A stretch of 64,000 nt of DNA from Deltaproteobacteria bacterium (GCA_016218805.1 JACRCW010000169.1:1-64000); one strand, 5' to 3'; positions 100 to 62,198 are shown, numbered from the stretch's first letter. The notes: generated by a model from the letters alone, not told the origin. A program made the numbers and translations.

Positions 100-141
100 T
101 CCCATGCGTCAATTTCAACCCATTCGGAGTGCAGGAGGGCC
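1..141 (+). mobile_element. Right end of an ISL3-family insertion sequence (partial, runs off the window)
   Basis: Frame 1 reads RTAFGFHSAEALIALAYAKFGGLCPPLP, typical of ISL3 transposase C-termini. The end at 141 reads GGCCCTCCTGCACTCCGAATGGG on the - strand (GG-initial terminus as in ISL3) and coincides with the break point of the adjacent Clp-like gene. Confidence 0.8.
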
Positions 142-1191
142 GGAAAGCGCGGGTTCCATGTATTGCGCCACGTGGGTCTTCCCCTGGCGGGTCTGACCGG
201 CGAACGCCATGGAGGCCAGGTCATCCAGGTAGAGCACGTCCCCGAGCTCGCTGAGCTCCCGCAACATCTCCTGGGCACGCGCCTCCCATTGCCCGACGTA
301 GCTCATCCCCGCAATGAAGCGATTTCCGTCAACGCGCCACACGTCACGCCGCTGATTGGCCTTGCTGTAGGCAACGTGGAGCCGGCGCGTGAACTCATGC
401 ACCAGCGCGGTCTTTCCTGCGCCGGATGGGCCCACCAGGCACACCGCCAGACCCTCGCGCGCCTCAAAGGTGGACACCAGTTGCCGCACCAGCGCCTCAC
501 GACCGAGACACCGCTCCAGCGTGTCATCCTGCGCGGCGTGACTGAGGTTTCTGCAGACGGTGCGCAGCGTGTCGGCCGTCAGCCGCCTACGACGACGACG
601 CTCCTCCTTCTGCAACGGCGTCTCCGGCTCGCGCGTGCCCGGCGCCGCACGCGGTTTGTGCTGCGTCCTCTTCGCCAACCGCGGCAGCACGCTTGACGGG
701 TAGACATCCACCTCAAGGATGTCCAAACGCTCCCTATGGCGCGAAACGCAGCTTTCAAGCGATTCAGCACGGGTTGCGAGGAGGTGCTTGCCCAGACGCC
801 GCGCCAGGGTGTCCGGCAGGGAGTCCAGGGACGCCAGCGCAAAGCGCGCCTCCGGCAACCTGATTGGGGTCACGACGAAGAAGTCATCCTTCGGCCACTT
901 CTCAATGAACACCGACACCATGCCCTTCAACTCGGCCTTGCGGCCCCGCTTCGGGTCCCGCGCCACGGAGTCCAGCCGCACCTGCCGCAGGCTCATGTGC
1001 GGCGGCAGGGCAAACGCCGCCTGCTCCAACGCACTGCTGTGCTCGTACGTATCCATCACCATCAACGCGAGATCGTCCCTGAGTTCCGCGGCCGACCCGC
1101 CCGACGTCCGGAACTCCGGCATGGCAGGCAACCACATTTCCACGTGGCGCGCGGAATGACGATCCACGATGAGCGGCAGCTTCAGTTCCAC
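142..1191 (-). pseudogene. ClpA/B-like AAA+ ATPase truncated within its first AAA domain by ISL3
   Basis: Walker A GPSGAGKT, pore-loop-like IAGMSYVGQWE and Walker B LYLDDL are present. After QYMEPALS the frame reads into IS sequence and stops at 115. Confidence 0.8.
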
Positions 1192-4100
1192 AGCGCCACC
1201 TCGTCCACGTCGAGCTGTTGTTCCAACCAGGCCTGCCAGATGTCGGCCAGGGGCGGCGGGTGGCCATCCACCAGCGGGTAGCCAGTCCTGGTGCGCAGGT
1301 CCTGGATCACGTGCTTGTCCCAGTCCACGCGCCGCACCTCAGCGCCGGGCTTGGCCTTCTCAATCTCCTCCAGGTCCGGCAGCGCGGCTCCCGCCCGCAC
1401 TGCATCAACCAGAATGCGCAGCAGAAACGTGTTCCCGTTGGTGATGACGCGGTGGACGCCGTGCTCCGCACGGAGCAACCACCGCGCTGAAGTACCACCA
1501 AACGTGAGCGCCACAGCGAGCGCCTCATCGCCGGGAGGCGGCTGCCGGTCGTCGGGGCGCTTCCACTGGGGCGCCTGGGTGATCCGCGGTGGCTTGCCGG
1601 GCCGGCCGGCCGGCGTCTTCACCTCCCGCACCACGAGCACCTGGCAGTCCGTGCAGCTTATGGCATTCCGGTAGGCATGAACCCACTGGCGGGCCTGGGC
1701 GGCTCCGCCGCGGCTCCACGTCATGACCACCCGCACCGGGCTCCGGGGAGGATGCATGGCGGCAAAGAGTTCTTCCGCCATGGGCCGGAGGCCCGCTTCC
1801 ACCGCCACCAGGTCCCCCCGCAACGAAGTGAGCGAATCCGCCGAACGATCGTAAAAGGCCTCAAACGCCACATCTTCAATGGCCGTGGCCTGGCGGGAAC
1901 CGTGCTCCAGTTTCTCCACGATTTCCCGGGCAACCGTGGCATCCTGGGATTGCTTTTCCGCGGCGCTGTGATCCGCCCAGAAGGCGGGATGTTTGCTCGC
2001 CTTGTCAAAGAGGGCGGTGCGCTCCCGCAACTGCGTGACCACGGCACTGCGCTGGAGCTTCATTAGGCGCGCGCGCAGCTCGGCGGCGTCCGCCAGCAGT
2101 TGTTCAACCTGCGCGGTCATGTCCGGCGCGCCACGGCTGTCACCAAGGTGCGTGAAGACCACCCTTTCACCGTCGGCTTCGGCCGCCAGCACTGCGCCCC
2201 GGGTGTTGGGATGGGACGCCAATGACGACGCCAGGGGAACCACCAGGTCGCGCTCCAGCGCACGTTTGAGTGGGCGGGCGCCGTAGCGCGGATCCACACC
2301 GTTCTTCAGCAGGAGCGAACGCGCAACCGCGCCCACCTCCATGCGTACTCCCAGGCGGCGCAGTCCTTCCCGACGGGGAACGGCCTGCAACTCACGGTCA
2401 AGCACGTGGTGGAGGACTGGTGGCGGCAGTGACGAGAAGACAATGACGTCATCCAGCCGGTTGAAGAGCTCCGGGCGGAAGAACCGCTCCACCTCGCCCC
2501 GGTAGTGCCTGCGCCGGTCAGCGTCCTCCGCGCCACCCTCCGCGGACCGGCCAAATCCCACTGTGGTGCGCAACGTGTCCGCGCCAAGGTTGGACGTCAG
2601 GATGATGACGGCGTTCCGGAAGTCCGTGAAGCGTCCCGTGGCGTCGGTCAGGCGCCCCTCCCCCAGCACGCCCAACAACGCGTCAAACACCGCCGGGTGC
2701 GCCTTCTCAATCTCATCCAGCAGCACCACGCAGAACGGCTCCCGCCGCACGGACGACGCCAGCAGCCCGGGACTCTCCGGGGTACCCAGGAGCCGCTCCA
2801 GCGCATCCGGCCCGGCGTATTCACCCATATCCAGGCGCACGAGGCGCTCGCGCGAGGAAAAGACGCATTCGCACAGCGCCTTGGCAAGTTCAGTCTTTCC
2901 CACGCCGGTGGGCCCGCAGAAGAACAACACCGCCATGGGCCGGTGTTCATCCGTCAGCCCGGCCTTGATCCGCGCCACGGCTTCCACCGCGCGGGCCACC
3001 GCTTCGTCCTGCCCCATCACCGCGCGTGCCATGCTGGCCTGCAGTTCCGCGCGCGGCATGGGCAGGTCGTCCCGGAGCAGCCGCTCGGGTAGGCCGCTTT
3101 CTGACGAGAAATGCCCCACCGCCACGTTCTCCGTGATGCGCGTGGTGCCGGCATGTGCCGCCGCGTCGGCGACGCGCCGGAGGAACGCGGCCCCCGTCCC
3201 AACCGCCGAACCATAGGGCCAGAACCGCCGGGCCAGCCGGAGGGTCAGCCGCACCACCTCGTCGTCAATCACAACCTTTCTGCGCGTGCCCTGGCGGCCG
3301 GCAACAGCCAGCAGGACGCGCTCCGCCTGGGCAGGGGGCGGTTCCTCCACGCGCAGCACGGTCCACTGCCGTGCAAAGGACTGGTTGATGTTCTCCACGC
3401 GTGACCACGCCTCCGGAGTTGCCTCCGCCACCACGCTGATACGACGGGTTGCCAGGAGCGGGGTGATCAATTGGGAGACATTCTCCTCGCTGTGTGCGCT
3501 CTTGCCCGCGTGCAACAGGTCCTCTGCCGTTCCCAGGTCCAGCAGCACCCGGGACCGCTCCGCCTCCGCAAACGCTCGGAGCGTGTCTCCCTGCCACCCA
3601 CCCAACATGCCGCCGCCGGCAATCAACCGCGGGCCGTCCAGGCGGAAGAACGGCCGCACGCGGCGGCCGGACGCCTGACGCTCCGCGGTCAACGCGCACG
3701 CAAGTTCATCCACCAGTGCCGTCTTGCCCACTCCGGCGCGCCCCACGATCACAACGGGCTCCGGACGTTCCGCCACCATCATGTTCCTGAGGCTGTGCAC
3801 CAGCGCATCCACGTGAAACGCGCGCTCCAGTGTTCCTTCAAGGGCCAACCGGTGCAGGGCCACGCCCTTCGCCTCCAGGAGCGGCGTGGCAAACCGGCGG
3901 CGCACCCTGGCCGTCCACTTCTCTTCGGGGAGATCTTCCGGCGGGCCGTCCTCATCGGAGGGTGCCGCCGTGTGACTCTCCTCGTCCGTATCCGCATCCG
4001 GAAGTTCCGGATCGTCGTCGTCCTGTGGATCGGGCAGGCGTTCACGATGAAGGTCCTTGGCCCCGATGTCAGACAGGCGAACCGGTTCGGCGGACACTTC

Positions 4101-4568
4101 CACGTGCTGGAACAACTCGGAACCGTCACTCCGCAGGCCCAGCAGCGAGTGGTCCCCCTGGGCCTCCAGATGCGCCTCCAGGAGGCGCTCCGCCGTGGTG
4201 GCCGCGTGTTCGTCGTCCTTCACCCAGGCGCGCCAATCCAGCCGCGGGACCCATACCTCCGCAAAGCCGGCGTGCACCGCCGTCAGCACGGCGGCAAACG
4301 CCAGCGGTTGCAGGTTGCGCCCTTGCGGTGTCCACACGGGAAGCGACTTGGGCGCCAGGCCCAGCGGGCGGAAGGCGGGACCATGCGGGAATGACGCCAT
4401 GAGGCGCGGATGCGTGCGGGAGATCATGTCATCCAGCGCCAGGGTGAGTTCCTCCAGCGCGGGTTCCAGCGCCACCGCGTGCAGCGAAAGCGAACGGAGT
4501 CCCTTGGGTACAACCGAAACCCGTCCGCTGGCATGGCGCGCCACAAGCGTGATGATGCGGAACCGCAT
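1182..4568 (-). CDS. Atypical ClpA/B-type double AAA+ ATPase with C-terminal release-factor-like region
   Basis: D1 Walker A GRAGVGKT with degenerate Walker B; D2 GPTGVGKT, LLDEIEKA, IILTSNLG, RPELFNRLD, YGARPLKR; VGF loop. Overlaps the start of the downstream Clp-like gene. Confidence 0.9.
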   Translation of the reverse strand: MRFRIITLVARHASGRVSVVPKGLRSLSLHAVALEPALEELTLALDDMISRTHPRLMASFPHGPAFRPLGLAPKSLPVWTPQGRNLQPLAFAAVLTAVHAGFAEVWVPRLDWRAWVKDDEHAATTAERLLEAHLEAQGDHSLLGLRSDGSELFQHVEVSAEPVRLSDIGAKDLHRERLPDPQDDDDPELPDADTDEESHTAAPSDEDGPPEDLPEEKWTARVRRRFATPLLEAKGVALHRLALEGTLERAFHVDALVHSLRNMMVAERPEPVVIVGRAGVGKTALVDELACALTAERQASGRRVRPFFRLDGPRLIAGGGMLGGWQGDTLRAFAEAERSRVLLDLGTAEDLLHAGKSAHSEENVSQLITPLLATRRISVVAEATPEAWSRVENINQSFARQWTVLRVEEPPPAQAERVLLAVAGRQGTRRKVVIDDEVVRLTLRLARRFWPYGSAVGTGAAFLRRVADAAAHAGTTRITENVAVGHFSSESGLPERLLRDDLPMPRAELQASMARAVMGQDEAVARAVEAVARIKAGLTDEHRPMAVLFFCGPTGVGKTELAKALCECVFSSRERLVRLDMGEYAGPDALERLLGTPESPGLLASSVRREPFCVVLLDEIEKAHPAVFDALLGVLGEGRLTDATGRFTDFRNAVIILTSNLGADTLRTTVGFGRSAEGGAEDADRRRHYRGEVERFFRPELFNRLDDVIVFSSLPPPVLHHVLDRELQAVPRREGLRRLGVRMEVGAVARSLLLKNGVDPRYGARPLKRALERDLVVPLASSLASHPNTRGAVLAAEADGERVVFTHLGDSRGAPDMTAQVEQLLADAAELRARLMKLQRSAVVTQLRERTALFDKASKHPAFWADHSAAEKQSQDATVAREIVEKLEHGSRQATAIEDVAFEAFYDRSADSLTSLRGDLVAVEAGLRPMAEELFAAMHPPRSPVRVVMTWSRGGAAQARQWVHAYRNAISCTDCQVLVVREVKTPAGRPGKPPRITQAPQWKRPDDRQPPPGDEALAVALTFGGTSARWLLRAEHGVHRVITNGNTFLLRILVDAVRAGAALPDLEEIEKAKPGAEVRRVDWDKHVIQDLRTRTGYPLVDGHPPPLADIWQAWLEQQLDVDEVALWN

Positions 4569-7829: not shown

Positions 7830-10800
7830 TCAGCCGGGCCCGGCCTTCTTGCGCAGCTTCTTGACCGCGGTCTCAATCTTCTCGTTGAGGCCGCGCTCCT
7901 TGCGCAGGGCCACCGCGGCGCGCTCCGCATCGTCAACCAGTTGCTTGAGCTCGCGCGCTTTTTCAATGGCCAGCTCCACCATGGCCTGCTGTTCGGCCAG
8001 TTCCTCCACCTGGGCGGCGGCGCGGTCCAGCAGTTCACGCGTGGCGCCCACCTCGTCACGCAGGCCGGACCACTGGCGGCCGGCCTCCTGCAGGTCCTCC
8101 AGGTTGTGCTGCAGCGCGTGGACACCGGCGCGGGCCTCCTGCACGTCGGCCACCACGCGTCCCACCTCGTCGGCGCGCGCGCGTGCGGCCGCGGCGGCGC
8201 GCTCCACCTCTTCGCGGCGGCGCTCCAGCACGTCCAGGGAATCATGCACCTCCTGCACCACGCTGAGGCGCTGCACCACGCTCTGCAATTCCTGGTCAGC
8301 CGCGGCCGCCATGGTGCGGACCTGGTCAAACATGGCCTGCCGCGCGTCCACGCGCTCCGCCGCGCCCTGCAGGGCCACGCGCTTCTCCTCCATGGTCCGC
8401 ACCAGGCGCTCCAGGGTGCGGGCGTCATCCTGGGATGCGCCCAGTTGTGACTCCAGCGCCACCTGGGTGGCGCGGGCATCCGCGGCGGCACCGGCCAGCG
8501 CCTGCTCCAGGGCGCCCACCCGCCCCAGCTCGGTGACCAGCTGTGAGGCCTGCCGGGAGCGCTCATCCAGCAGGCGCGCGTACTCCTCCTGGCGGCGGAC
8601 CAACTCGCGCAGCGCCTGCTCCTGCGCGGCCAGGTCGGACTTCTGGACCGCCATGGCGGTCAGGCGCTTCTCCGCCTCTTCCATGCGCGTGCGGATGCCG
8701 CGGATCTGCTCGGGGAGGGCAGCCAGCTTGCCGCGGAGGTCCTGCACCGCCTCCATCTCGCGGCGCAGGCCTTCCAGCTGCTGCCGAACGCCGTCGGTCG
8801 CCACGGACAGCGTCTGGATGTCACCGCGGCGCTTGAGCAGTTCCTGCCACTGGTTCTCCACGTCCTGGTGCAGGCCGGCCAGGCGGTCCAGGCGCGTGTG
8901 GATCTCCTCGGTCTGCCGCGCCCGGTGCTGCAGCTCCTCCATCTGGGACTCAATTTCGCGGCGGGACGCCACGGCGCCGGCCAGGACCTCCTGCCGCTCC
9001 TCCACCTCATCCAGCGCGCGCTGCAATTCGTCCGCGCGGCCGGCCATGGCGGGGAGCCCGTCCTGCGCCGCGCGCAGCCGGGAGAGCAGCGCGTCCGCCA
9101 AGGACGCTTCGCGCGCCAACTCCGCGCGTGACCGCTCCGCCGCCTCGCGTGCCAGCTCCCACTGTTTCAACGCGGCGTGCTGTTCCTGGAGCCCCGCGTA
9201 CATCTGCTCAATGGACGCCATGTGTTCCGCGGTGGCGTGCGCGGCCTGTTTGACCTGATCCATGCGGGCGCGCGCGTCCTCCAGCTGGGCGCCGCGGTCA
9301 CGCAGCTCGTCGTGGCGCTCGTGCAGCTCGCCCATCTCGGCCGCCACGCGGTCAGACAGGGCCTTGAGCAGCTCCCCGTCGGCGCGGACGCGGCGCGCGG
9401 CATCTTCCGTGCGCTCCGCGGCAGCCTCGGACGCGTTGAGGCGCGCTTCCAGGGCCTGCGCGCGCCGTGACGCATCCTCCATGATCTCGCGCGCGGTCTT
9501 GGCCACCTCGTTGGACTCGCGCAGGAGGGCGGCGTCCCGCAGCACCTGGTCGCGCATGGCACGCACGCCCTGCATCTCGCGGCCGGCCTCCGTGACAAAG
9601 TTCCGCAGCGCCTCCACCTGGTCCCGTTCCTCACCGGACAGGAACAGGTCCCGCGCGGCCCCACTGATCCGCTGCTCCAGCGCGGCCAGCGTCTCCAGCT
9701 GTCCGGCCACGGCGCGTTGCCGGTCCTCCATTTCGCGCAGCCGGGGATGCATGCGCGCCAGCATCTCATCCCACTGCTGGGGTGATCCCGCGCGGGCCAC
9801 AATGTCCGTGACCACGTCCGAAGTGGCCTGCGCCTGGTCAATCAGCGGCTTGAGGCGCGTTTCCACGCCCTGGGCCACGCGCTGCATCAACTCCACCTGC
9901 TCGCCCTGCTCGCCCAGGGAGGCCACGGATTCCGCCAGGGACTGCTGCAGCGCACCCGCCTGCATCACCAGCCCGCCCAGCTTCAGCGCGGTGGCCTCCG
10001 CGCCGGCCAGCCGCTGCTCCATGGCGCCGAATCTCTGCTCGCGCTGTTCCACGGCGGCCATGCGCTGCGCCTGGCGGGTGGTCAGCGCCTCGGCCTGCCG
10101 CACCATTTCCATCAGCGCCTGGGCGCGGTGCGCCGCGTGCTGCTCCAGCTCGTCCGTGCCCATCCGCTCCACGGCGGGGGACTCATCCAGGCTGGCGCGG
10201 GGCGTGCGCGCGTTGGGTGGGCGGCGTCCCTGACCGGCGGCGGCCGCGTGGCGGGCCGCGCCCACACACACCACCAGGCGCGGGTCCACGGACAACCGCG
10301 GATCCTTCTTGAAGTACCGGCGCAGCGCCAGCGCCACAAACGGCAGCCGGGTGGGCCCGCCCGACAGGATCACGTGGTCCACCTGTGCGGCGGTGACCTG
10401 CGCGGTGCGCAGCGCCTCGTCACAGATCTTGAACCCGCGCTGCACCAGGTCCGCCACCATGCGCTCCAGGTGCGGGCGCTGCAGCACCAGGTCCACGTCA
10501 TGCAGGGTGCCGTCCGCGGCGGGGACCGCGGGGACGGCCAGGCGCGCGGACTCCGCGTCCGCCAGCGCGTTCTTGGCCTGCTCCGCCGCGTCACGGATGC
10601 GCACCAGCGCGGCCGGGCTCTGCGCCAGGTCCACGCCCTGCTGGGCGCGGCACGCTTCCACCACGGACGAGACAATGCGGTTGTCCAGGTCATCCCCGCC
10701 CCACGTGGGGTCCTGGGACGCACCCGCCACGCGGCCCGCGCCGCCGCCCAGTTCCACCAGGGTGGCGCGGCATTCGTCCGCGCTCAGCTCAAACACCAGC

Positions 10801-11372
10801 GCGCGGACCGCGGGCCCGTCATCCAGCCCATAGGCGCGTGCGGCGGCCACCGGTTCTTCAATCACGTCCAGCGGCTCCAGCCCGGCCAGCCGCAGCGCGT
10901 CCGCCGCCGCGGCGCGCTGGCGCTCATTGAACCACGGCGGCACGGCCACCACGCCCGCCTCCGGGGCCTCCCCCAACCGGTCCCGCGCGCGCGCGCGCAG
11001 CTCGCGCACCAGGAACGCCTCAATCTCCTCAGGGCCGTACGCCCGGCCGTGGAGCACCAGCCGCACGGAATGCTCGGGGCCCTCGCGCAACTCGTAGGGC
11101 AGCGCCGCGCGCGCCTTCTGGACCTCGTCAGAAAAGAACGGGCGCCCCAGCAGCCGCTTGGCGCGCGCCACCGTGGTCCGCGGCGCGGTGAGCAGCTGAT
11201 CCCGCGCCTCCCGCCCCACCAGGATCCGGCCGTCCGCCAGGATGGACACCACGGACGGAAGCTGCGGCTCACCCCACGCGTCAGGGATCACCTGCGGCAC
11301 GCCATCCTTCACGGCCGCGGCGCGGGTGAAGCGCGTACCCAGGTCGATCCCGAGTGCCAGGGCGTCCGCCAT
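7830..11372 (-). CDS. Hsp70-family nucleotide-binding domain fused to ~800-aa coiled coil (no substrate-binding domain)
   Basis: Starts MADALALGIDLGT; VPPWFNERQR, EEPVAAA, GGDDLD, AEQAK, ILSGGPTRLP, VDPRLVVCVGAA; then heptad-rich A/E/Q/R/L helix to the end. Confidence 0.9.
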   Translation of the reverse strand: MADALALGIDLGTRFTRAAAVKDGVPQVIPDAWGEPQLPSVVSILADGRILVGREARDQLLTAPRTTVARAKRLLGRPFFSDEVQKARAALPYELREGPEHSVRLVLHGRAYGPEEIEAFLVRELRARARDRLGEAPEAGVVAVPPWFNERQRAAAADALRLAGLEPLDVIEEPVAAARAYGLDDGPAVRALVFELSADECRATLVELGGGAGRVAGASQDPTWGGDDLDNRIVSSVVEACRAQQGVDLAQSPAALVRIRDAAEQAKNALADAESARLAVPAVPAADGTLHDVDLVLQRPHLERMVADLVQRGFKICDEALRTAQVTAAQVDHVILSGGPTRLPFVALALRRYFKKDPRLSVDPRLVVCVGAARHAAAAGQGRRPPNARTPRASLDESPAVERMGTDELEQHAAHRAQALMEMVRQAEALTTRQAQRMAAVEQREQRFGAMEQRLAGAEATALKLGGLVMQAGALQQSLAESVASLGEQGEQVELMQRVAQGVETRLKPLIDQAQATSDVVTDIVARAGSPQQWDEMLARMHPRLREMEDRQRAVAGQLETLAALEQRISGAARDLFLSGEERDQVEALRNFVTEAGREMQGVRAMRDQVLRDAALLRESNEVAKTAREIMEDASRRAQALEARLNASEAAAERTEDAARRVRADGELLKALSDRVAAEMGELHERHDELRDRGAQLEDARARMDQVKQAAHATAEHMASIEQMYAGLQEQHAALKQWELAREAAERSRAELAREASLADALLSRLRAAQDGLPAMAGRADELQRALDEVEERQEVLAGAVASRREIESQMEELQHRARQTEEIHTRLDRLAGLHQDVENQWQELLKRRGDIQTLSVATDGVRQQLEGLRREMEAVQDLRGKLAALPEQIRGIRTRMEEAEKRLTAMAVQKSDLAAQEQALRELVRRQEEYARLLDERSRQASQLVTELGRVGALEQALAGAAADARATQVALESQLGASQDDARTLERLVRTMEEKRVALQGAAERVDARQAMFDQVRTMAAAADQELQSVVQRLSVVQEVHDSLDVLERRREEVERAAAAARARADEVGRVVADVQEARAGVHALQHNLEDLQEAGRQWSGLRDEVGATRELLDRAAAQVEELAEQQAMVELAIEKARELKQLVDDAERAAVALRKERGLNEKIETAVKKLRKKAGPG

Positions 11373-11565
11373 GTGCTGCCGGTTCCGTTCTCCGTGGACG
11401 CCGTGTCCTAGCACGGGCGGGCGGGCGGCCGCGGTGTGCGAGCGGTGCCTCCGCCCTCCCACCCCTGCTGCCGGCGCGGCACGCGGATCCAGGATGCGCC
11501 GGGGGCCCAAGGGTCTGTAGAGTCCGCGCCCGGGCGGGCGAACTGAACTAGCGCGGAGGCAGTGA

Positions 11566-14058
11566 ATGGCGACGTTGTTCCGCAAGAGCGGCGGGAGCAC
11601 CGGCAAGGAGGCTGAGGAGCTGAGCGCCGCGGTGGCGGCCGCGCAGAAGGAGCGCGAGGCATTGCAGCAGCTGGTGGATCAGCTGGCCGGAGCGCAGAAG
11701 CTGGGTGACCTCATCACCCGCGCCGGCGCGGAGAAAGCGGCGCTGGAACAGGCGCTGGCCAACACGGAGAAGAACAAGCCGCGCTTTGCCTCCGCGGAGA
11801 AGGCGCTGCGTGACCTGGAGGGGCTGGCGGAGGCGCTGCAGGGCCGCGTGGCGGCCGCGGAGGGCAAGGCGGAAGCGCTGTCCAGCATGGACCAGCGGGT
11901 CCAGCGCCTGTCTGATGACGCCAAGAAGGCCGAGACCGCGGTGCAGGCCGCGTCCCAGAAGGCGCTGGACGCCGTCAAGGACGTGGAGGGGCGCCTGGAA
12001 GGCGTGGCCAAGCTGCAGGAGCTGGCCGGGCCGCTGCAGGAGAAGTTGTCGTCGTTGAACTCACTGTCTGAGTACGTGCAGCAGAAGGTGAAGCTGCTGG
12101 AGAAACAGAAGACCACGGTGGAGCACGCGCTGCTGGAGGGCAACCGGCTCAGCGAGCTGGTGTGGAAGATGGAGCAGCAGATCAAGACGCTGAAGGAGGG
12201 CGGCGCCGAGGCGGAGCGCGTGGAGCAGATCCTGGGGCGCGTGGAGGAGTTGTCCCAGCGGTCCAAGTCCGCACTGGAGGAGTCCACGCGCGGGACGGAG
12301 GCCACTGAGGCCACGGCGCGGCGCCTGGCCGAGGAGCGCGCGGCGCAGGAGGAGCTGCTGCGCACGCAGTCCGAACAGTTGGCCACCGTGCGCAAGGAGT
12401 ATGAGGCGTTCAGCGGCCGCACCGACGCGCTGCGCGGCCAGCTGGCCGAATTGGAGAAGACCGCGGGCGACCTGGCAGAGAAGGAGCGCGCGCTGGCCGG
12501 GCTGACGCAGAAGCTGGACGGCGCATCCCGCCAGATCCGGGACAACCTGGCGCAGGCGGATGCGCTGCACGCGCGGCAGTCCGCGCTGTCCGCCCTGGAG
12601 GAACAGCTGGCTGACGTGGAGGGCGTGTCCCGCAAGGCCCTGGGACAGGCCGAGTCCCTGGCGAAGGCGCAGGCGGAGTTGGACCGCATCCGCGGCGAGA
12701 TTGAGAAGCTCTACAAGTCCCACGCGGAGGTGGTGGCCCTGGTGGAGAAGCTGCGCGGCGAGCGCGTGTCGCTGGAGGCGTTCATGGAGCGCGCGCGGGA
12801 CTTTGCCACGGGGGTGCCGGAGCTGGAGCGCCGCATGGGCGGCATCAAGGACGGGCTGGCCACGCTGGATGAGTCTGAGGCGCGCGCCAAGGAGATCCTG
12901 GCGCAGTCCGCGGACATGGCGGCGCACATGGAGCGCCTGGCCGCGCACCGTGACGTGGTGGAGAAGGTGGACGGCCGCCTGACGCGGCTGCATGAGCTGA
13001 CCGCCGAGGTGGACCAGAAACACCTGGCGCAGATTGCGCGCCAGTCAGAGATTGACGGGCTGAAGAGCCGGTGTGACGCGCTGGGCATCCAGCTCAATGA
13101 CGTGGAGCACAAGGTGGACGCGGTCTCCGCCGTGGAGCGGCGCCTGTCCCCGCTGCTGGAACAGGCCAAGGCGCTCAACACGGAGCTGGACAAGGCCAAT
13201 GCGCGCTTCCGTTCCGCGCTGCGCGAGCAGGCCGCCGTGGACGCCCAGGAGAAGCGCCTCACCGCCATGGCGGAGGAGACCCGCGTCACGTCCGGGCAGG
13301 TGGAGGAACGCCTCAAGCAGGTCAACTCGCTGCAGGACGATCTCTCGCTGGCGTCGTCCGTGAAGGAGGACCTGTCCAAGGAGCTGGGCCAGGTCAGCGC
13401 GCGGCAGCTGGAGGTGGGCAGCCAGATGGACGCCGCGGAGACGCACCTCAAGCGCATCCAGGACACGCTCAAGAAGCTGGAGGGGCGCCAGAGTGTGCTG
13501 GCGCGCGGGGAAGAGGTCATCTCCCGCTTTGAGCTGCGGGTGGAGGAACTCACGCGCAACGCGGACGAGACGGACCGCAAGCTGGCGTCCCTGGCGCAGC
13601 GCGGGTCCCTGGTGGAGGCGGTCAAGAAGGAGGTGGACACCATCCACGAGATTGCCGCGCGCAGCCGCGCGGACCTGCAGAACGTGGCGGACCACCGGGC
13701 GCAGGTGACCGAGCTGCGCGCCAAGCTGGACGAGGTGCTGGCGCGCGCCGCCGAGACGCAGGACCGCATCAACGCCATTGAGGCGCGGCGCAAGGTGATT
13801 GACGCCGTGGAACAGAAGGCCAACCTCATCACCAACATGCTGGAGGACGTCCGCGTCAACCTGGAGATGCTCACGGAACAGCGGGCGGTCATTGACCACG
13901 TCATGGAGTCCGCCGCCCAGCTGGAGAAGGCGGTGCAGGACGCGCAGGCGGTGCTGCGCAACCTCCACTCGGAGCGCGAGCTGGCCGAGAAGATTGGCAG
14001 CGGCATCAAGAAGCTGCGCAGCAACCGCTCCACGCCGCCCACGGAGGGCGGCGGCTGA
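11566..14058 (+). CDS. Long coiled-coil protein (830 aa), paralogous to the tail of the divergent Hsp70 fusion
   Basis: Almost Pro-free heptad-rich sequence, strong host codon bias, GGAGG RBS, no NTPase motifs. Confidence 0.85.
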   Translation: MATLFRKSGGSTGKEAEELSAAVAAAQKEREALQQLVDQLAGAQKLGDLITRAGAEKAALEQALANTEKNKPRFASAEKALRDLEGLAEALQGRVAAAEGKAEALSSMDQRVQRLSDDAKKAETAVQAASQKALDAVKDVEGRLEGVAKLQELAGPLQEKLSSLNSLSEYVQQKVKLLEKQKTTVEHALLEGNRLSELVWKMEQQIKTLKEGGAEAERVEQILGRVEELSQRSKSALEESTRGTEATEATARRLAEERAAQEELLRTQSEQLATVRKEYEAFSGRTDALRGQLAELEKTAGDLAEKERALAGLTQKLDGASRQIRDNLAQADALHARQSALSALEEQLADVEGVSRKALGQAESLAKAQAELDRIRGEIEKLYKSHAEVVALVEKLRGERVSLEAFMERARDFATGVPELERRMGGIKDGLATLDESEARAKEILAQSADMAAHMERLAAHRDVVEKVDGRLTRLHELTAEVDQKHLAQIARQSEIDGLKSRCDALGIQLNDVEHKVDAVSAVERRLSPLLEQAKALNTELDKANARFRSALREQAAVDAQEKRLTAMAEETRVTSGQVEERLKQVNSLQDDLSLASSVKEDLSKELGQVSARQLEVGSQMDAAETHLKRIQDTLKKLEGRQSVLARGEEVISRFELRVEELTRNADETDRKLASLAQRGSLVEAVKKEVDTIHEIAARSRADLQNVADHRAQVTELRAKLDEVLARAAETQDRINAIEARRKVIDAVEQKANLITNMLEDVRVNLEMLTEQRAVIDHVMESAAQLEKAVQDAQAVLRNLHSERELAEKIGSGIKKLRSNRSTPPTEGGG

Positions 14059-14074: not shown

Positions 14075-15382
14075 TCACGCTTTGGAGAGCGTTTCCTCGG
14101 CGGCCTTCTCCGCGGCCTTCTCGGCCACCTTCTCCGCGGCCTTCTCGGCCACCTTCTCCGCGGCCTTCTCGGCCACCTTCTCCGCCTTCTCGGCGGCTCT
14201 CTCCGCCGCCTTCTCCGCCACCTTCTCCGCCTTTTCAGCCACTTTCTCCGCCTTCTCAGCTGCTTTCTCCGCCGCCTTCTCCGCCACCTTCTCCGCCTTC
14301 TCGGCGGCCTTCTCCGCGGGCCGGTCCTTGTCCGCGGGGTCCTTGCGGTGCACTGCCACCTGCGGCTGCGCGGGCAGCATGCCCTCGCGGCGCTCGCGGC
14401 GGCGCTTCCACGCAAACTCCACAATCTGGCGGATGAGATCGTCATACGGGATGCCGGAGTGCTCCGCCGCCATGGCCAGCTCCGCGTCCCGTGCAAGGTA
14501 CGGATTGGGGTTCACCTCAATCACGTACACGTCACCGCCCGGCGTCACGCGCACGTCCACGCGGCCGTAGTCACGCGCCTGCAGCGCCAGGTACGCCTCG
14601 CGCGCTGCCGCCTGCACGCGCGCCGCCAGCTCAGACGAAAGGTCCGTGGCAATCACCGCCTTGGTCCCCTTGTACGCCCGCGTGCGCGCATTCCACTTGG
14701 CGTCATAACTGGCCACCGGCGGCACGTGCGGCGGCAGCCCGGAGAAGTCCATCTCCACCAGGGACAGCGGGCGCGGGTTCAGGTGGCCAATGACGCTGAC
14801 GTAGTACTCGCGCCCCTCAATGTACTCCTCCGCCAGCGCCGTCCCGCCAAACGTCTCATGCACGTAGTGCACGCGCTCAATGAGGCTCTTGAAGTCCGTC
14901 ACCAAAGACGCCTCGGTGATGCCCAGGGACGCGTCCGCGCGGGCGGGCTTCACAAACAACGGGTAGCGGATGTTGCCCCCCGTCTCGATGCGGTCCGAGG
15001 CGAACGTCAGGAACTGCGGGTATTTCACGCCGTGGTACTGCAGCAGCTTCTTGGTCAGCACCTTGTCCTGCGCCATGAACAGGCCACCGGGGTCAGCCCC
15101 GGTGAACGGCACCGCCATCAACTCCAGCAGCGCGCCCACGTGCATGTCCATGGTCATGTTGTTGCCAAAACTCTCCACCAGGTTGAACACCAGATCCGGC
15201 CTGGTATCCATCACGCCGTCAATGAAACCGCGCGCGTCGTCCGGCACGGCGTAGGGCGTCACGCGGTGCCCGTGGTTGGACAGCGCGGTGGCCACGTGCT
15301 CCACGCACGCATCGGGCTTCTCGGACCCGCGGTGGTCCTTCAGGGGTGCGTCGTGGATCACGGTGACGTTGAGCTTCTTCAT
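14075..15382 (-). CDS. D-Ala-D-Ala ligase-like ATP-grasp protein with AEK-repeat tail
   Basis: LVFNLVE, AQDKVLTK, YPLFVKP...DASLGI, AEEYIEGRE, YGRVDVR, VIEVNPNP; AAGGAAG before ATG 15382. Confidence 0.85.
   Translation of the reverse strand: MKKLNVTVIHDAPLKDHRGSEKPDACVEHVATALSNHGHRVTPYAVPDDARGFIDGVMDTRPDLVFNLVESFGNNMTMDMHVGALLELMAVPFTGADPGGLFMAQDKVLTKKLLQYHGVKYPQFLTFASDRIETGGNIRYPLFVKPARADASLGITEASLVTDFKSLIERVHYVHETFGGTALAEEYIEGREYYVSVIGHLNPRPLSLVEMDFSGLPPHVPPVASYDAKWNARTRAYKGTKAVIATDLSSELAARVQAAAREAYLALQARDYGRVDVRVTPGGDVYVIEVNPNPYLARDAELAMAAEHSGIPYDDLIRQIVEFAWKRRRERREGMLPAQPQVAVHRKDPADKDRPAEKAAEKAEKVAEKAAEKAAEKAEKVAEKAEKVAEKAAERAAEKAEKVAEKAAEKVAEKAAEKVAEKAAEKAAEETLSKA
14097..14320 (-). repeat. 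Coding low-complexity tandem repeat (AAEK/VAEK/AEK)n
   Basis: Repeated ccttctccg/ccttctcgg units on the + strand encode about 70 aa of A/E/K/V repeats. Confidence 0.9.
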
Positions 15383-15399
15383 CGCTTCCTTGTGCCCCC

Positions 15400-16455
15400 T
15401 CAGACTTCCACAAACTTCTCCCGGTACAGGTGGTTCACCACCAGGGTGGTCAGCATGATGGCCAACCGCACGCCCACGGCATCCTCGCGGCCCGTGGGGA
15501 CCACCAGCCCCAGCACGCCGGTGCGCGCCCCCAGGTGGTCCAACAGCGCGCCAATGACCCTGGGGCGCGCGCCCGTCCAGTACGCCACGTCCCGCGCCAG
15601 GTCCCGCCGGCGGCGGTGGATGAACTTCTGCGCGGGCTCCCCGCCCGCCTCCGGGCCGCCAAACAGATCCCGCAGGTCCCCGTCCAGCCACGCGCCCACG
15701 TGCTCCGCCACCTGCTCCGGCTCCTGCTGCGCGTAGTGCTCGCGGACCGTGTAGGACATTTCCTCAACGGGCAGCAGCACCGCGGGGGGAACCGCGTCCG
15801 CCACGCGCATGGGCGGCAGGGCGCGCGTGACGCGGTCCACGTAGCGAAGCTTCTCCAGCGCTGGCCAATCCTTGTACGCGGTCTCCCAGGAGGACCCGGG
15901 AGTGAGCCACACCGCAAACGTCTCAGCAAAGTCCTCATCCGGGTGCTTCTGCGCGTACCAGCCCGGGATGTGCTTCACGAACTTCTTGGAGAACGGCGAG
16001 GGCTTGTAGTCCTCCACGTACGGGCGCGTGTACGGCCCGAACAGCGCGTGCCATTCCTCCGTCTCGTGCAGGCGGTAGGCGTAGTTGTACGCGTGGCCGG
16101 CCTCGTGCCGCAGGAACATCAGGATCTGCTTCTCGCCCTCCAGGTCACCCGTCTGCTCCTCTTCAATCTTCGCCAGCATGGGGTTGGCCAGGTAGAACGG
16201 GATGCCAATAACGGGGACGCCGTCCGGACAGCCCCACTCGTCAGAGAGGTAGCACCGCGGCTTGAACGGCAGGCCCTTGGCGTCCAGCTCGCGGTGCAAC
16301 TGGTCAACCAGCTCGCCCAGGCGGGTGCCCTCAATGCGCAGCTGGAGGTCGCTGATCTTGCGCTCGAGGACGTCGAGGTCATCGCGGCCGCGCAGCTCCG
16401 GTGCGCCTTCCTTGAACGTCGAGTCTGCCTGGGCCACGGCCGCGGATCGTAGCAT
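15400..16455 (-). CDS. Putative zinc-binding metallopeptidase
   Basis: HEAGH zincin motif and YAQKHPDEDFAETFAVW; start may be ATG 16455 or GTG 16437. Confidence 0.8.
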   Translation of the reverse strand: MLRSAAVAQADSTFKEGAPELRGRDDLDVLERKISDLQLRIEGTRLGELVDQLHRELDAKGLPFKPRCYLSDEWGCPDGVPVIGIPFYLANPMLAKIEEEQTGDLEGEKQILMFLRHEAGHAYNYAYRLHETEEWHALFGPYTRPYVEDYKPSPFSKKFVKHIPGWYAQKHPDEDFAETFAVWLTPGSSWETAYKDWPALEKLRYVDRVTRALPPMRVADAVPPAVLLPVEEMSYTVREHYAQQEPEQVAEHVGAWLDGDLRDLFGGPEAGGEPAQKFIHRRRRDLARDVAYWTGARPRVIGALLDHLGARTGVLGLVVPTGREDAVGVRLAIMLTTLVVNHLYREKFVEV

Positions 16456-42150: not shown

Positions 42151-43467
42151 ATGGCGAGTATTCCAGACTGGCGGAGTGCGTTCCCGTGGCTGCGGCCTGA
42201 CCGGCCGCCGGCAGACATGCGGCTGTATGTGGAACCCAAGTACCGGGCGGCGGAAAGTGCTTTGAAGCGGGTCCAGCGTGACCCTGGTGGATTTGCCAAG
42301 GTCCTCCTGGTGGGTCCGAGGGGCGGCGGCAAGAGCACCGAGTTGCGCAGGATCAGCCAACTTGCCAAAGACGACGCTATCGTCGTGGAGATAGACCTCG
42401 ACGCGTCCGGGGTCTCCGCGGCCAGCGTCTCGGCGTTCGACCTCCTGTATGTCACTTCGGCGGCACTGTTGCGGCACACCGCGGAGGGAACCGCTGAGAC
42501 ACTGTTCAAGGAACTCGCTGAAGCCTACGCCGGCAAGGAGGCGAAAAAGACCCTGGGGCCGCTCGCCGAGACACTCGCCGGTATTGCGACGTTTGCAACG
42601 GCGGCTACCGCCGTAGCGGCTGGCTCCGGACTCCTGGCGGGCGCGGCACCCCTCATCGGTGCGGCGAGCGCCACCACGGCGGGCGCACTCCGCCTTCTTG
42701 CCAGACCCACCGGCGTGATTGCCGAAACGTCGCCCCAGGGCTCGGCACTGATGAGGGTGAGCACCAAGATCACGCGGGAGGTTCGGTCGCAGTCCGACAA
42801 GCCGATTCTCGTGCTGCTTGACGGCCTGGAGAAGATGAATGGCGAAGCGGCGGAACGCTTCCGACAGATGTTTGTCCAGACTCGCCTGCTCGCCGATCCA
42901 ACGTGGTCCGCGGTCATCGCCGCACCGCCGTGCACGTTGACCGAAACCGCCTCCGCACTCGCATTCGTGCCCGTCACCGTCTGGGGTTTCGGGCCCGACG
43001 ATGGCGCGCGCGTGGTGCGGGCGCTTCAGCTGCGCCTGCAAGCCGCGGGTCTCGACATTCCGCGCGATGTTGAAACCGGCGTGCTGGAGTACATCGCCCA
43101 GATGAGCGGCGGCGTGCCGAACCACGCCATCAAACTGATGCAGGAGGCGGTTGCGGCCGCTGAGGGGAAGCCGCGGATGGGGCTCTCCATGGCGCAAGAA
43201 GCCGTCAGGTGGTTGGCCCAACAACTCGCACAGGGTCTGACAGGCGAGGACTTGGACGCGCTTGCGGCCGTTGACGAAGAACATCACCTGCGCGGGGACC
43301 GCGCCTCGGCGTTGTTCGCTGACGGCAGAGTGATTGCGCAGCCGCCTTCGGACGAATCGGACGCACCCGAATTCGTGGTCCACCCCGTGCTCCAGCGCAC
43401 CGTCAAAGTGCATGGGACGCGCCGGGCAGCGCGCGATGTCCCCGAAACCGAGCCAGCCGAGGAATGA
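42151..43467 (+). CDS. P-loop ATPase (STAND/KAP-like) with hydrophobic insert
   Basis: GPRGGGKST, LVLLDGLEK, SGGVP; Ala/Gly-rich hydrophobic stretch between Walker A and Walker B. Confidence 0.8.
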   Translation: MASIPDWRSAFPWLRPDRPPADMRLYVEPKYRAAESALKRVQRDPGGFAKVLLVGPRGGGKSTELRRISQLAKDDAIVVEIDLDASGVSAASVSAFDLLYVTSAALLRHTAEGTAETLFKELAEAYAGKEAKKTLGPLAETLAGIATFATAATAVAAGSGLLAGAAPLIGAASATTAGALRLLARPTGVIAETSPQGSALMRVSTKITREVRSQSDKPILVLLDGLEKMNGEAAERFRQMFVQTRLLADPTWSAVIAAPPCTLTETASALAFVPVTVWGFGPDDGARVVRALQLRLQAAGLDIPRDVETGVLEYIAQMSGGVPNHAIKLMQEAVAAAEGKPRMGLSMAQEAVRWLAQQLAQGLTGEDLDALAAVDEEHHLRGDRASALFADGRVIAQPPSDESDAPEFVVHPVLQRTVKVHGTRRAARDVPETEPAEE

Positions 43468-45860
43468 CCCGCTACCGCGATGCCGTGACTGCCGCCTTGC
43501 GGCACCCGCTGGTCGGGCAACCCGGCGTCTTCCTGCTCATCGTACCGTCCCGGGAGCACAAGGAAATCGGCGCCGAGGTAGCGCGGGTCCTGCCGACCGA
43601 ACGAATCTCCCCACTGGTGCCGGGCGCAGCCGCCGCGGACGACAAGCAACCGTGGATCATCCTTGGGCTCCCCCGCGATTCCGCGACGCGAAAAACGGCG
43701 CTGCAGGAACTCAATGGGCGGCGCGACCGGTTGGCAGCCGCCAACCGGCAGCTGGTGCTCCTCGTGACTCGGGCGGAGTTGAAGGACGTCCAAAGATACG
43801 CGGGCGATCTGTATTCGCGCGTGCGCTTCAACGCGGTTATTCCGTTTGAGCCGGACCCCACGGTGGGTGTCGCGGAAGCGCGATCCCAGCTTGGTGAGTG
43901 GTACCACCGCCGCTACGGCAAGCTGGACCTGCGCGGACTCGTGCGCGACAGCACCGAAGACATCGGGTGGGGAATCGAGAGCATCTACCAGGAACTGCGG
44001 GCAATGCCGGCTGACCTGTCCGGCGAATTCGATGCCCGTTTCGACCGGGGTGGACGCCTGCGCATGTCGTTTGAGCTGGGCGTTGGCGTGCCGTTGGTAC
44101 GCCTTGTGGCGGCACCCGACCATGTCGTGGTGGTGCTGGCGCACCCGGGGTCCGGCAAGACCTTCTTCTTGCGCTGGCTGGCCCTGCGCGCTGCCCGGGA
44201 GCCGACGCTCGGGATGAGCACCCCGCTACCCCTGCTGTTCCCGCTGGCCGCGTTTGGGGGAGCGGCCAGCGTGGACGAAATCGTGGCGATCATGGTGGAC
44301 ACGCTGCTGGAGGACTGCGCCCCGGCAGCGCACGTGCTGGGCGCGGCGCTGCGCAACGGTGATGCGCTCTTGTTGCTGGATGGGTTGGACGAGGTGGGGG
44401 AGGAAGCGCTGCGTGTCCAGGTCGCGGCCCGGGTGGTGGAATTCCATTCGCGTTACCCGTCGTGCCGTTTGGTGGTGACCAGTCGGCTGGCGGGCTATCC
44501 CGAAGCGCCGCTGCCGTTTCCGGCCTGCACCATCGCGCCCCTGGATCGGAATGCCATCAAGGCGTTCCTGGTCCAGTGGTGTGAACTGTACGCGGTGGAT
44601 CTGCACGGGGAAACAGCCCGTGACCGGGGGCGCCAGGACGGCGCGCGACTTGCCCAGGACGTCCTTGGCAACCCGCAGCTCACCGAGCTCGCGGGTAATC
44701 CCCTCCTGCTCACGGTGCTGGCGATCGTGCATCGGACGGGGGTTCGCCTCCCGGATCACCGCGTTGAACTGTACTCGCACGCCACGCGCGTGCTGGTGGA
44801 ACGCTGGAACCGTGCCCGCAGCCTGGGCGGCGACACCCATGCACGGCCCCTGACCAGTGCCGATGCAGCCAGGCTGCTGGGTCCGCTGGCGTTGCGGGCC
44901 GTCCGGCGTGCGTCGCGTGGAACCGTTCCGGAAGCCGAGTTGCGCGAGAGCCTCGAACGCGAGCTCTCAGATCGCGCCATCAAGGGTCTTGCGTCCGTGG
45001 ACGAGGCCATTGACCTGTTCAAGCGTGCGCTGGGGTTGCTCGTGGAGGTTGCGCCCGGCCTGTACGGCTTCATGCACCTGACGCTCGCGGAGTACCTGGC
45101 GGCGTGGGAATTGGTACGCACCGGGGAACTGGAGAAGTTGGTGGACCGGCCCACGGAGGCATTCCTGCCCGAGTGGCGCGAAACGCTGTTACTTGCCCTC
45201 GGCGAGCTTGGTGTGAATCGCGGCGAGGATGCGCGGTTGGCGGCCGCCATCCGCGCATTGTTGCGCAGCGCAAGGCGGCGGCGCGGACGTCCTTCGGTGG
45301 GGGTGCCGTCGTTGTTGGCGGGGCTGCTCGCGGACGACCCCGGGCTGACTCTCACGGTGGCGCAGAACATCGCAGACGAGTTGATTCCTCGGTGGTGGTT
45401 CAAACGCGACTACGGTGAAAAACGGCTCGGAGATTTTCTGGCGGAGGCGCTGAACCTGGCTTCCCGAATCGGCGCCGGTCGGTATGCATCCCTGGTCGTG
45501 GAGCGCCTTGAGAAGCACATCAACACGCTGCCCGCGCACATGCAGGTACCGCAGAATGCCGAACGGGTGCTGCGTGTGCTTCTGGTCTGCGGTGCCGGGC
45601 CACCGGCCGTGATGGCGCTGTTGGCGCGGTTGCCGAACGGGCTCTTCGTTTGGTGGCGAGGGGATGGCGAAGAGTTCACGCTCTCGCCAACCATTTCCAC
45701 GCTGGTTCGAGAGGGGGCGGTCCGACTGGAGGCGCACAGGGAGGACAAGACGACCACATCGGTTGAGTTCCTCGGCATGACCGGCGATCGGGGGCGATTT
45801 CGCACGGAGGGCCGCTTGGTGTATGCGCGCATCGCTGAGGTTCCCGGAAAGCGCGGATGA
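43464..45860 (+). CDS. NACHT-domain (bacterial NLR-like) protein
   Basis: AHPGSGKT, LLLLDGLDEV, VVTSR, GNPLLL, FMHLTLAEYLAA; ATGA overlap with the upstream ATPase. Confidence 0.88.
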   Translation: MTRYRDAVTAALRHPLVGQPGVFLLIVPSREHKEIGAEVARVLPTERISPLVPGAAAADDKQPWIILGLPRDSATRKTALQELNGRRDRLAAANRQLVLLVTRAELKDVQRYAGDLYSRVRFNAVIPFEPDPTVGVAEARSQLGEWYHRRYGKLDLRGLVRDSTEDIGWGIESIYQELRAMPADLSGEFDARFDRGGRLRMSFELGVGVPLVRLVAAPDHVVVVLAHPGSGKTFFLRWLALRAAREPTLGMSTPLPLLFPLAAFGGAASVDEIVAIMVDTLLEDCAPAAHVLGAALRNGDALLLLDGLDEVGEEALRVQVAARVVEFHSRYPSCRLVVTSRLAGYPEAPLPFPACTIAPLDRNAIKAFLVQWCELYAVDLHGETARDRGRQDGARLAQDVLGNPQLTELAGNPLLLTVLAIVHRTGVRLPDHRVELYSHATRVLVERWNRARSLGGDTHARPLTSADAARLLGPLALRAVRRASRGTVPEAELRESLERELSDRAIKGLASVDEAIDLFKRALGLLVEVAPGLYGFMHLTLAEYLAAWELVRTGELEKLVDRPTEAFLPEWRETLLLALGELGVNRGEDARLAAAIRALLRSARRRRGRPSVGVPSLLAGLLADDPGLTLTVAQNIADELIPRWWFKRDYGEKRLGDFLAEALNLASRIGAGRYASLVVERLEKHINTLPAHMQVPQNAERVLRVLLVCGAGPPAVMALLARLPNGLFVWWRGDGEEFTLSPTISTLVREGAVRLEAHREDKTTTSVEFLGMTGDRGRFRTEGRLVYARIAEVPGKRG

Positions 45861-61974: not shown

Positions 61975-62198
61975 TCCTCCCCAGCAAGCACATTCCGTCT
62001 CGTTCGTCCTTGCTTGGCGTTGGAGGCATCCTGCTGTCGCGCGTCAACCGCCCCATTACGGCCACATCGCTGTGGGAGCAGGTGCGGGGATTGCCGGAGG
62101 TGGGAACCTACTACCGTTTTGTGCTTGCGCTTGATCTTCTCTTCCTCATCGGCGCGATTGACCTGAACGATGGTCTTCTCAAACGGACCGCCCCATGA
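61971..62198 (+). CDS. ABC three-component system middle component (LmuC-like)
   Basis: 75 aa, MILPSKHI..SLLGVG...FVLALDLLFLIG; ATGA overlaps on both sides. Confidence 0.8.
   Translation: MILPSKHIPSRSSLLGVGGILLSRVNRPITATSLWEQVRGLPEVGTYYRFVLALDLLFLIGAIDLNDGLLKRTAP

Follow-up and report, generated by a model that had tools for sequence, protein, structure and literature searches.

Myosin, built of a head and a rod, co-assembles with paramyosin, a homologue that consists of the rod only (about 870 amino acids, aa). In Myxococcus, FrzS and AglZ carry a dead receiver-domain head on a long coiled coil. Two further proteins, ZicK and ZacK of Anabaena (Alr4504/Alr4505), are mutually dependent and are encoded by neighbouring genes of the same orientation in 53 of 72 genomes (10.1101/553073). 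The gene pair considered here lies in a stretch of 64,000 nucleotides from a Deltaproteobacteria bacterium (GCA_016218805.1, JACRCW010000169.1:1-64000; the window) and invites comparison with all of these. Gene A encodes a degenerate Hsp70 nucleotide-binding domain (NBD) followed by a coiled-coil rod, and gene B encodes a homologous rod without a head. A sequence-only reading of the window had described them as head-to-head genes across 193 bp, and the gene calls agree (Table 1). B may be a scaffold and A a passenger on it.

It is clear from sequence comparison that the rods of A and B are true paralogues. BLASTP aligns A760-1174 with B404-818 (25% identity over 434 aa, E 3e-18), and the five pairs of colinear motifs listed in the sequence-only reading all fall inside a single BLASTP/profile alignment. 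Against shuffled controls (300 shuffles per type) the similarity holds for the C-terminal halves: A750-1180 and B395-830 reach a Smith-Waterman score of 340, compared with 190 for reversed B and with maxima of 141, 170 and 178 for residue, 7-residue-block and 14-residue-block shuffles. It does not hold for the N-terminal halves (A385-760 versus B1-410), which score 156, inside the block-shuffle range (maximum 185), so that pairwise homology is not apparent there; the last 60 aa taken alone score 100, which equals the 14-residue-block maximum. With a profile built from 14 sequences, including B, A scores 121 bits (E 8e-35) in the set of 34,077 open reading frames (ORFs) of the genome, the next ORF having an E of 0.003 and reversed A a best domain of 14.6 bits. 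Another, built from 32 family members excluding both A and B, gives A 180 bits and reversed A at most 27. B aligns to the 32-member profile over 781 residues without a gap, lacking about 73 family positions near its N-terminus. A does so over its last 503 residues, at about 25% identity, and finishes at the same C-terminal end position as B. The rod of A retains the residue at 22 of the 53 positions where the family conserves a polar one; of the 36 conserved hydrophobic positions, 31 are hydrophobic in A as well. The segment that precedes the main rod is probably an extra copy of an internal stretch of the family (family positions 545-714), the match reaching 51.5 bits in the homologue of A described below (locus L007) and being weak in A itself.

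What sets these rods apart is their periodicity. In A, B and all eight relatives tested, the hydrophobic period measures 3.455-3.46, and autocorrelation peaks at 31, 24 and 38 residues correspond to heptads with regular stammers. A hendecad periodicity is ruled out by the measured 3.455. The genome's four other long coiled coils of rod-like character have periods of 3.49-3.52; two more strong peaks, at about 3.41, seem to come from helical-repeat proteins. The motif R-h-x-x-h-E, which we take to be a trimer motif, is no more enriched in the rods than in control coiled coils. A structural model of B is helical from aa 10 to 818 with short breaks (mean predicted local distance difference test score 61.5), and this model has no Foldseek match in the PDB. 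Hartmann et al. state that the majority of known non-heptad coiled coils have a period above 3.5 (PMC4786415). The N-terminus is a second shared trait: 25 of 32 full-length members have a Phe within the first eight residues, usually with basic residues next. B starts with such a Phe-basic peptide, and in A the head stands in its place. The membrane-targeting consensus of bactofilins is given as MFSKKKK (PMC12448750), and by analogy the N-terminal peptide of B may bind the membrane.

The rod of B belongs to an unnamed, length-conserved coiled-coil family present in several phyla. A search with B400-830 returned 20 proteins at 38-49% identity, and a profile search among 1.84 billion entries returned 448 cluster representatives at E<1e-30 and 1383 at E<0.001. 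The full-length members (n=32, picked within a range of 880-930 aa) are 896-926 aa long, with few internal deletions and pairwise identities of 17-95% (median 31%). Atlas clusters of about 900 aa come mostly from Acidobacteriota, Pseudomonadota, Gemmatimonadota and Ca. Eisenbacteria, with shorter ones in Nitrospinota; named records include metagenome-assembled genomes of Vicinamibacterales, Burkholderiales and Longimicrobiales. Within the class of one Vicinamibacterales genome, 32 of 121 genomes have rod matches, three of them marginal. Several genomes of the Vicinamibacteria class (G067, G113, G128, G131, G149) have at least two rod paralogues at unlinked sites, some of them frameshifted. A Pfam scan of the rods gave compositional matches and no fitting family. 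The best named profile is NCBIfam SpiroCoCo_C (NF047515), which five of seven full-length members match at or above the cut-off of 125 (132-154 bits), with B at 117.5 bits, A at 80.8 and none of three heptad controls. The best stretches end by about model position 263 of 313, and register shifts occur in P0053, P0087, P0117, P0158 and A. This match points to shared periodicity or remote kinship. The rods were not filed under SpiroCoCo (NF047514/NF047515), since no best stretch reaches the end of the model and the register is not constant. No paper bearing the SpiroCoCo_C name was found in the full-text literature searched.

The family appears to be foreign to the lineage of the window. None of 40 relatives has it, and no true match was found in 400 genomes of the phylum, with at most two candidates scored per genome; four weak matches there (20-34 bits) were dismissed on inspection as unrelated simple repeats. 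Plasmid and phage collections gave no match to one family member, P0023. Because the family was not found in these relatives and phylum genomes, the rod was likely acquired from outside the phylum, long enough ago, it would seem, for the G+C content at third codon positions (GC3) to match that of the host (0.90-0.93).

In most places the rod is solitary. Of 111 loci examined, 65 contained the 5' end of the rod gene with at least 1.5 kb upstream (these loci are related, not independent), and 61 of the 65 have no rod-bearing divergent partner. Neighbouring genes differ from clade to clade. One recurring order (L010, L022, L028, L066, L074, L075 and others) is secA (named from its sequence only), M23 peptidase, comM, rod and LysM-SLT transglycosylase, continuing with aldehyde dehydrogenase, a bacterial microcompartment shell gene, pilC-type and pilB-type genes. 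In P0062, P0069, P0088, P0102 and P0024, segments of the rod (about 120 aa in several cases) are repeated in tandem with near identity, which suggests frequent intragenic duplication or misassembly.

Is the fusion of head and rod in A real? The sequence-only reading had raised the possibility of an assembly artefact at the junction, and this worry can be set aside. The fusion is real. The junction is bridged by a contig from run X1 (9568-11789; X1 may be the source sample) and by one from run X2 of the same study (10078-10393). It is also kept at L007, from another metagenome, where a homologue of B (55% identity) lies head-to-head with a homologue of A across 267 bp, the latter 40% identical over 744 aa and colinear through the junction. 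For gene A a longer, TTG-started ORF could be drawn that would overlap gene B; the start at 11372 is favoured because the L007 homologue begins at the equivalent Met. The frame of 1180 codons is intact, with a housekeeping-like GC3 of 0.90. Alignment of the 193-bp gap with that of L007 shows no clear conservation and is uninformative.

L007 is one of four among the 65 other loci at which a rod gene has a divergent rod-bearing partner. The other three (L015, L027 and L077, with gaps of 397, 286 and 258 bp) are among nine loci of a Burkholderiales-like clade, and there the copy of the rod carries a cyclase-type head. This is a domain of ~150 aa with an Atlas score of 0.93 to Guanylate_cyc clusters and weak Foldseek matches, obtained with a model of low confidence, to adenylyl cyclases (best E 1.6e-3); a PDB sequence search with the head alignment gave coiled-coil noise only. 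The metal-binding aspartates, which we take to be the class III nucleotide cyclase signature, are absent from these heads (alignment A3, read by eye), which suggests that they are pseudo class III nucleotide cyclases. The tails of these partners share 60-67% identity with the adjacent rods and 45-48% with B, and they group with the local rods, not with B (97/100), in a careful tree of 47 hand-picked rows out of 176. Alignment A2 was made without P0014, P0007 and P0018; P0014, with an ABC ATPase head, and rows with frameshift-like tails are likely assembly or sequencing errors and were not counted. The cyclase-head pairs thus probably have an origin separate from the Hsp70-head pair, and recurrence of the layout with another inactive head suggests a reusable way of docking regulators onto a cell scaffold. 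Pseudo-cyclase heads are also fused to C-terminal rod pieces in P0019-P0022, P0104, P0118, P0137 and P0152. A third kind of fusion occurs in P0074, P0159 and P0171 (two clusters), PilT-like proteins with altered Walker A/B motifs, tandem rod inserts and a duplicated N-terminal domain; the inserts were found at none of 12 related loci from Vicinamibacteria genomes. The sequence-only reading had missed both the spread of the family and the other dead-enzyme heads.

The head of A is an Hsp70 NBD. Pfam HSP70 matches aa 7-377 (E 3e-83, 280 bits, profile positions 2-373 of 599), and the DnaK NBD 8w1m in the PDB matches with an E of 4.5e-69. The Hsp70 ATPase domain seen by the sequence-only reading is therefore there, and, as it had also noted, no substrate-binding domain or lid was found in A: the match stops at position 373 of the profile and stays below all DnaK/HscA cut-offs. 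The phosphate-2 loop, previously called decayed, is lost in two organisms, reading ELSADECR in A and ELSGDSCN in L007 versus D[LFM]GGGTFD in all eight other aligned Hsp70s of the genome. GIDLGT is retained, as are the GG of the adenosine loop and the Lys and Glu at the catalytic positions (presumably the equivalents of K70 and E171 of DnaK). The glycine of BiP G226 presumably sits in the same phosphate-2 loop. In Kar2p, a Gly-to-Asp change equivalent to BiP G226D abolishes ATP binding (PMC2797226). Judging from these motifs, the head of A has likely lost ATP hydrolysis and has possibly lost ATP binding as well.

Where did the head come from? The genome carries many Hsp70 paralogues. The one closest to the head is a lidless Hsp70 of 535 aa on contig C19, which is 43% identical to A and 49% to the L007 head; the genome's other Hsp70s are 32-37% identical to the A head (30-37% when both heads are considered). 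The lidless type is present in all three other genomes of the class (560-600-aa frames), and the rod is missing from all three. Because class relatives carry the lidless Hsp70 without the rod, the sequences indicate that the head is native and the rod imported. By the same comparison, the head is a recent offshoot of the lidless paralogue and not an MreB or actin derivative. The actin-fold argument of the sequence-only reading therefore falls away: MreB_Mbl scores only 17.8 bits (cut-off 27, E 0.0016) versus 280 bits for HSP70. The C19 gene is followed by a DnaJ-domain gene, not a stkB-type one, and its identification as StkA is unsupported. Elsewhere in the genome (G000) are a frame that encodes an Hsp70 NBD only, its phosphate-2 loop intact (C74:40540-41667), and a separate match to the substrate-binding domain only (C19:165793-166596); these may be one gene split across contigs.

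What might such a pair do? The account that we tentatively prefer, with confidence a little short of even, is that B forms a self-assembling scaffold of rods held at the membrane and that A, expressed together with it, is a passenger, pairing with B through its in-register rod and carrying a dead Hsp70 head. B would be a parallel coiled-coil rod of ~120-130 nm and near-fixed length, attached to the inner membrane through its N-terminal peptide and self-assembling into a filament or lattice. A would have arisen when a duplicated rod gene was joined to the NBD of the host's lidless Hsp70. Having no membrane peptide, it would be recruited by pairing its rod with B, the two sharing the period of 3.455 and the same C-terminal end. 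The head would keep the Hsp70 fold, hydrolyse no ATP and serve as a binding surface, possibly for the co-chaperones or clients of the parent Hsp70. A shared divergent promoter would keep A and B co-expressed. That rod genes are mostly solitary, with neighbours that change between clades, is what a self-sufficient structural protein would lead one to expect. Also in favour of this account are the near-constant length of the full-length rods, the register, period and C-terminal end that A has in common with B, the upkeep of the pair at L007, and the pseudo-cyclase pairs and PilT-like rod inserts. An obligate heteropolymer, as proposed in the sequence-only reading, is rejected because the rod stands alone in most genomes, with a partner gene at only four of the 65 other loci. 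From that reading, then, the paralogous rods, the genuine fusion and the lost loop survive, and the obligate heteropolymer, the actin-fold argument and membership of the intermediate filament (IF) proteins do not.

Several observations weigh against the scaffold-and-passenger account. Contact between A and B and polymerisation of B are predictions from sequence. No sigma-70-like promoter was found by scanning the 193-bp intergenic region, and no long-range charge period of the type that sets the stagger in myosin or IF proteins stood out in the rods, where the charge-period peaks are at 3.45 and, weakly, at 7.8. The rod of A is not nearest to B (23% identity, compared with a best value of 25% to L063), and A is an unplaced long branch in the tree. 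The gap-free alignment is a constraint on the whole rod family and would be equally expected of an A homodimer. Finally, the Hsp70-head version was found in two organisms only, and at L007 the contig ends before the C-terminal half of A. Prediction of a complex between B560-825 and A915-1180 scored 0.00 in two runs whose controls did not fold, and so counts neither for nor against contact.

The scaffold-and-passenger account could also be taken further. What if the rod is an undescribed, multi-phylum cytoskeletal polymer, its 3.455 register an address code with which repeatedly built dead-enzyme passengers co-polymerise? The passengers would be an Hsp70 NBD here, a class III cyclase in the Burkholderiales-like clade and a PilT-like protein in Vicinamibacterales, the passenger gene having been set head-to-head with the scaffold gene at least twice. 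Co-polymerisation would position the heads in the cell, as it does myosin on paramyosin. The idea is a rather doubtful one.

An alternative that is unlikely, and still a real contender, is that A and B act separately. A would be a homodimeric head-plus-stalk protein like FrzS or AglZ, its rod a spacer taken from the neighbouring gene and the gene order a relic of local duplication. The rods have indeed diverged by about 75%, with no special likeness of A to B. Rod pieces are shuffled or in tandem in P0062, P0069, P0102 and P0159, much as a plug-in spacer might be, and other head-plus-coil proteins exist in the genome, including one with a receiver domain. Why, however, would the head-to-head order outlast a protein divergence of about 50% between the window and L007, or the layout be repeated at three loci with an unrelated head? 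A also keeps the rod end and the exact register, neither of which a spacer needs.

The conservation of rod length across phyla could mean that the rod serves some larger machine, such as a pilus or the competence apparatus, as a tether or ruler of fixed length; it would then form no polymer, and A would be an alternative subunit with a regulatory head. At many Vicinamibacterales-like loci the rod adjoins comM, with pilC/pilB-type genes no more than about 8 kb away, and some PilT-like proteins contain fused rod pieces. However, this neighbourhood is confined to one clade, the rod having unrelated neighbours elsewhere, and none of these genes is beside the window pair. We regard the tether as improbable. 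The chance is similarly slim that A is a chaperone co-factor, with a head like those of the atypical Hsp70s Hsp110/Lhs1 or Ssz1, which would bind nucleotide or an Hsp70/J-protein and not cycle, and a rod acting as a holdase or as an assembly chaperone for B. The motifs retained in the head and the DnaJ-domain gene behind its lidless parent would fit this, as would Lhs1p, which has no detectable ATPase activity yet requires nucleotide binding. Proteins of the Hsp110/Lhs1/Ssz1 type nevertheless have a substrate-binding domain and A has none, and the cyclase- and PilT-fold heads on the same rod argue that chaperone identity is not the recurring feature. That A is a decaying chimera with no present function is very improbable indeed: its branch is very long and two protein searches with parts of A (best 8000 candidates scored in each) found no protein besides A, but the frame is intact with a GC3 like that of housekeeping genes, the rod is gap-free and a colinear orthologue at 40% identity has the same loop change.

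Table 1. Features of the gene pair in the window, and the pseudo-cyclase-rod genes at other loci.
Feature	Coordinates	Strand	Remarks
Gene A	7830-11372	-	1180 aa; degenerate Hsp70 NBD, short linker and coiled-coil rod homologous to the gene B family
Gene B	11566-14058	+	830-aa headless rod; member of the ~900-aa family
Divergent intergenic region	11373-11565		193 bp between start codons; presumed shared promoter
Gene A Hsp70 NBD, aa 1-377	10242-11372	-	Pfam and PDB matches, identities
Gene A decayed phosphate-2 loop ELSADECR, aa 195-202	10767-10790	-	Aligned with the genome's own Hsp70s
Gene A Pro/Arg-rich head-rod linker, aa 378-411	10140-10241	-	Bridged by contigs from two runs
Gene A first coiled segment, aa 412-582	9627-10139	-	Probable extra copy of family positions 545-714
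Gene A main rod, aa 583-1178	7839-9626	-	Family positions 295-897; last 503 residues gap-free; period 3.455
Gene B N-terminal Met-hydrophobic-Phe-basic peptide MATLFRKS	11566-11589	+	Candidate membrane-targeting sequence
Gene B conserved rod end	13858-14019	+	Retained in A and in all aligned cyclase-head partners
Pseudo-cyclase-rod genes	L015:3022-4662, L027:1054-2601, L077:1886-2911		Divergent from a full rod gene

The flanking genes scanned are Clp-like AAA, GNAT, peroxidase-like, ATP-grasp and Peptidase_Mx genes. Next to the pair (14075-16410, minus strand) are a gene for a putative Peptidase_Mx metallopeptidase and then one for a D-Ala-D-Ala-ligase-like ATP-grasp protein, the latter with a long Ala/Glu/Lys repeat tail at about 14082-14350. 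Elsewhere in the window are two tandem Clp-like AAA+ genes with unusual N-termini (115-4568, minus strand), an AAA_16 gene adjoining a NACHT ATPase gene (42151-45860, plus strand) and, in a stretch of lower GC, an ABC-three-component defence-like locus consisting of an unknown ORF, MC6 and a DUF2326/CTD10 ATPase (61219-63940, plus strand).

No description of the rod family or of the Hsp70-rod fusion was found in full-text literature, most subscription journals lying outside the search, which agrees with the sequence-only reading in not recognising a described system. The list of NBD-only Hsp70 proteins in Data Set S1 of one study could include similar fusions; its main text, in which the word 'coiled' does not occur, mentions no coiled-coil fusion (PMC8265645). 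The family is widespread and unstudied, comes from bacteria that are abundant yet seldom well cultured, and holds its period below 3.5 throughout; the fusion is a further example of an Hsp70 domain put to use as a head that is no chaperone. If passengers do dock by means of a rod copy, evolution would have arrived more than once at a simple means of placing pseudo-enzymes on a scaffold.

How does the pair compare with known systems? Short or lidless Hsp70s like the parent of the A head are described from myxobacteria as StkA, with a proposed regulatory role (PMC4319316), and MXAN_2747 (PMC8265645); both retain a substrate-binding region, and the likeness is by description only. The CnuD/CnuCD proteins of CoCoNuT systems also combine a degenerate Hsp70-like domain, predicted to hydrolyse ATP poorly, with coiled coils (PMC11090510). 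However, they retain the substrate-binding domain and belong to McrBC/HEPN defence operons, and no McrB GTPase, McrC or HEPN gene is among the flanking genes scanned. SMC and Rad50 profiles match A and B in coiled-coil stretches only, far below cut-offs, and Pfam finds no ABC-ATPase domain. Like crescentin and other IF-like proteins, the rod is long and of conserved length, with a short head and tail and an N-terminal segment implicated in attachment to the envelope (PMC3087291). However, at about 880 aa it far exceeds them in length, and its period, of the stammer type, falls below 3.5, where theirs is heptads with a stutter. Neither A nor B matches the IF and crescentin profiles (Filament, Rod_CreS), and one distant member reaches 23 bits with Rod_CreS (cut-off 100). 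The suggested membership of IF-like proteins therefore does not hold.

The remaining comparisons are closer. Like FrzS and AglZ, A joins a long coiled coil to a head that is (in A, probably) catalytically dead, but those are not known to have a headless paralogue head-to-head, and the genome's own receiver-domain coiled coil, with a period of 3.52, gives no match to the rod profile. Myosin and paramyosin differ in having an active motor head and a 28-residue charge repeat, neither of which is seen here, and no homology links them to the pair. ZicK and ZacK (10.1101/553073) offer a precedent for the co-assembly of two neighbouring coiled-coil-rich proteins; by contrast, the present rod is mostly solitary and the genes are divergent, one with an enzyme-fold head. 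By analogy, then, the pair most resembles a scaffold of the ZicK/ZacK or crescentin type combined with a dead head of the FrzS/AglZ type, and would stand outside the DnaK, MreB, IF, SMC and CoCoNuT groups.

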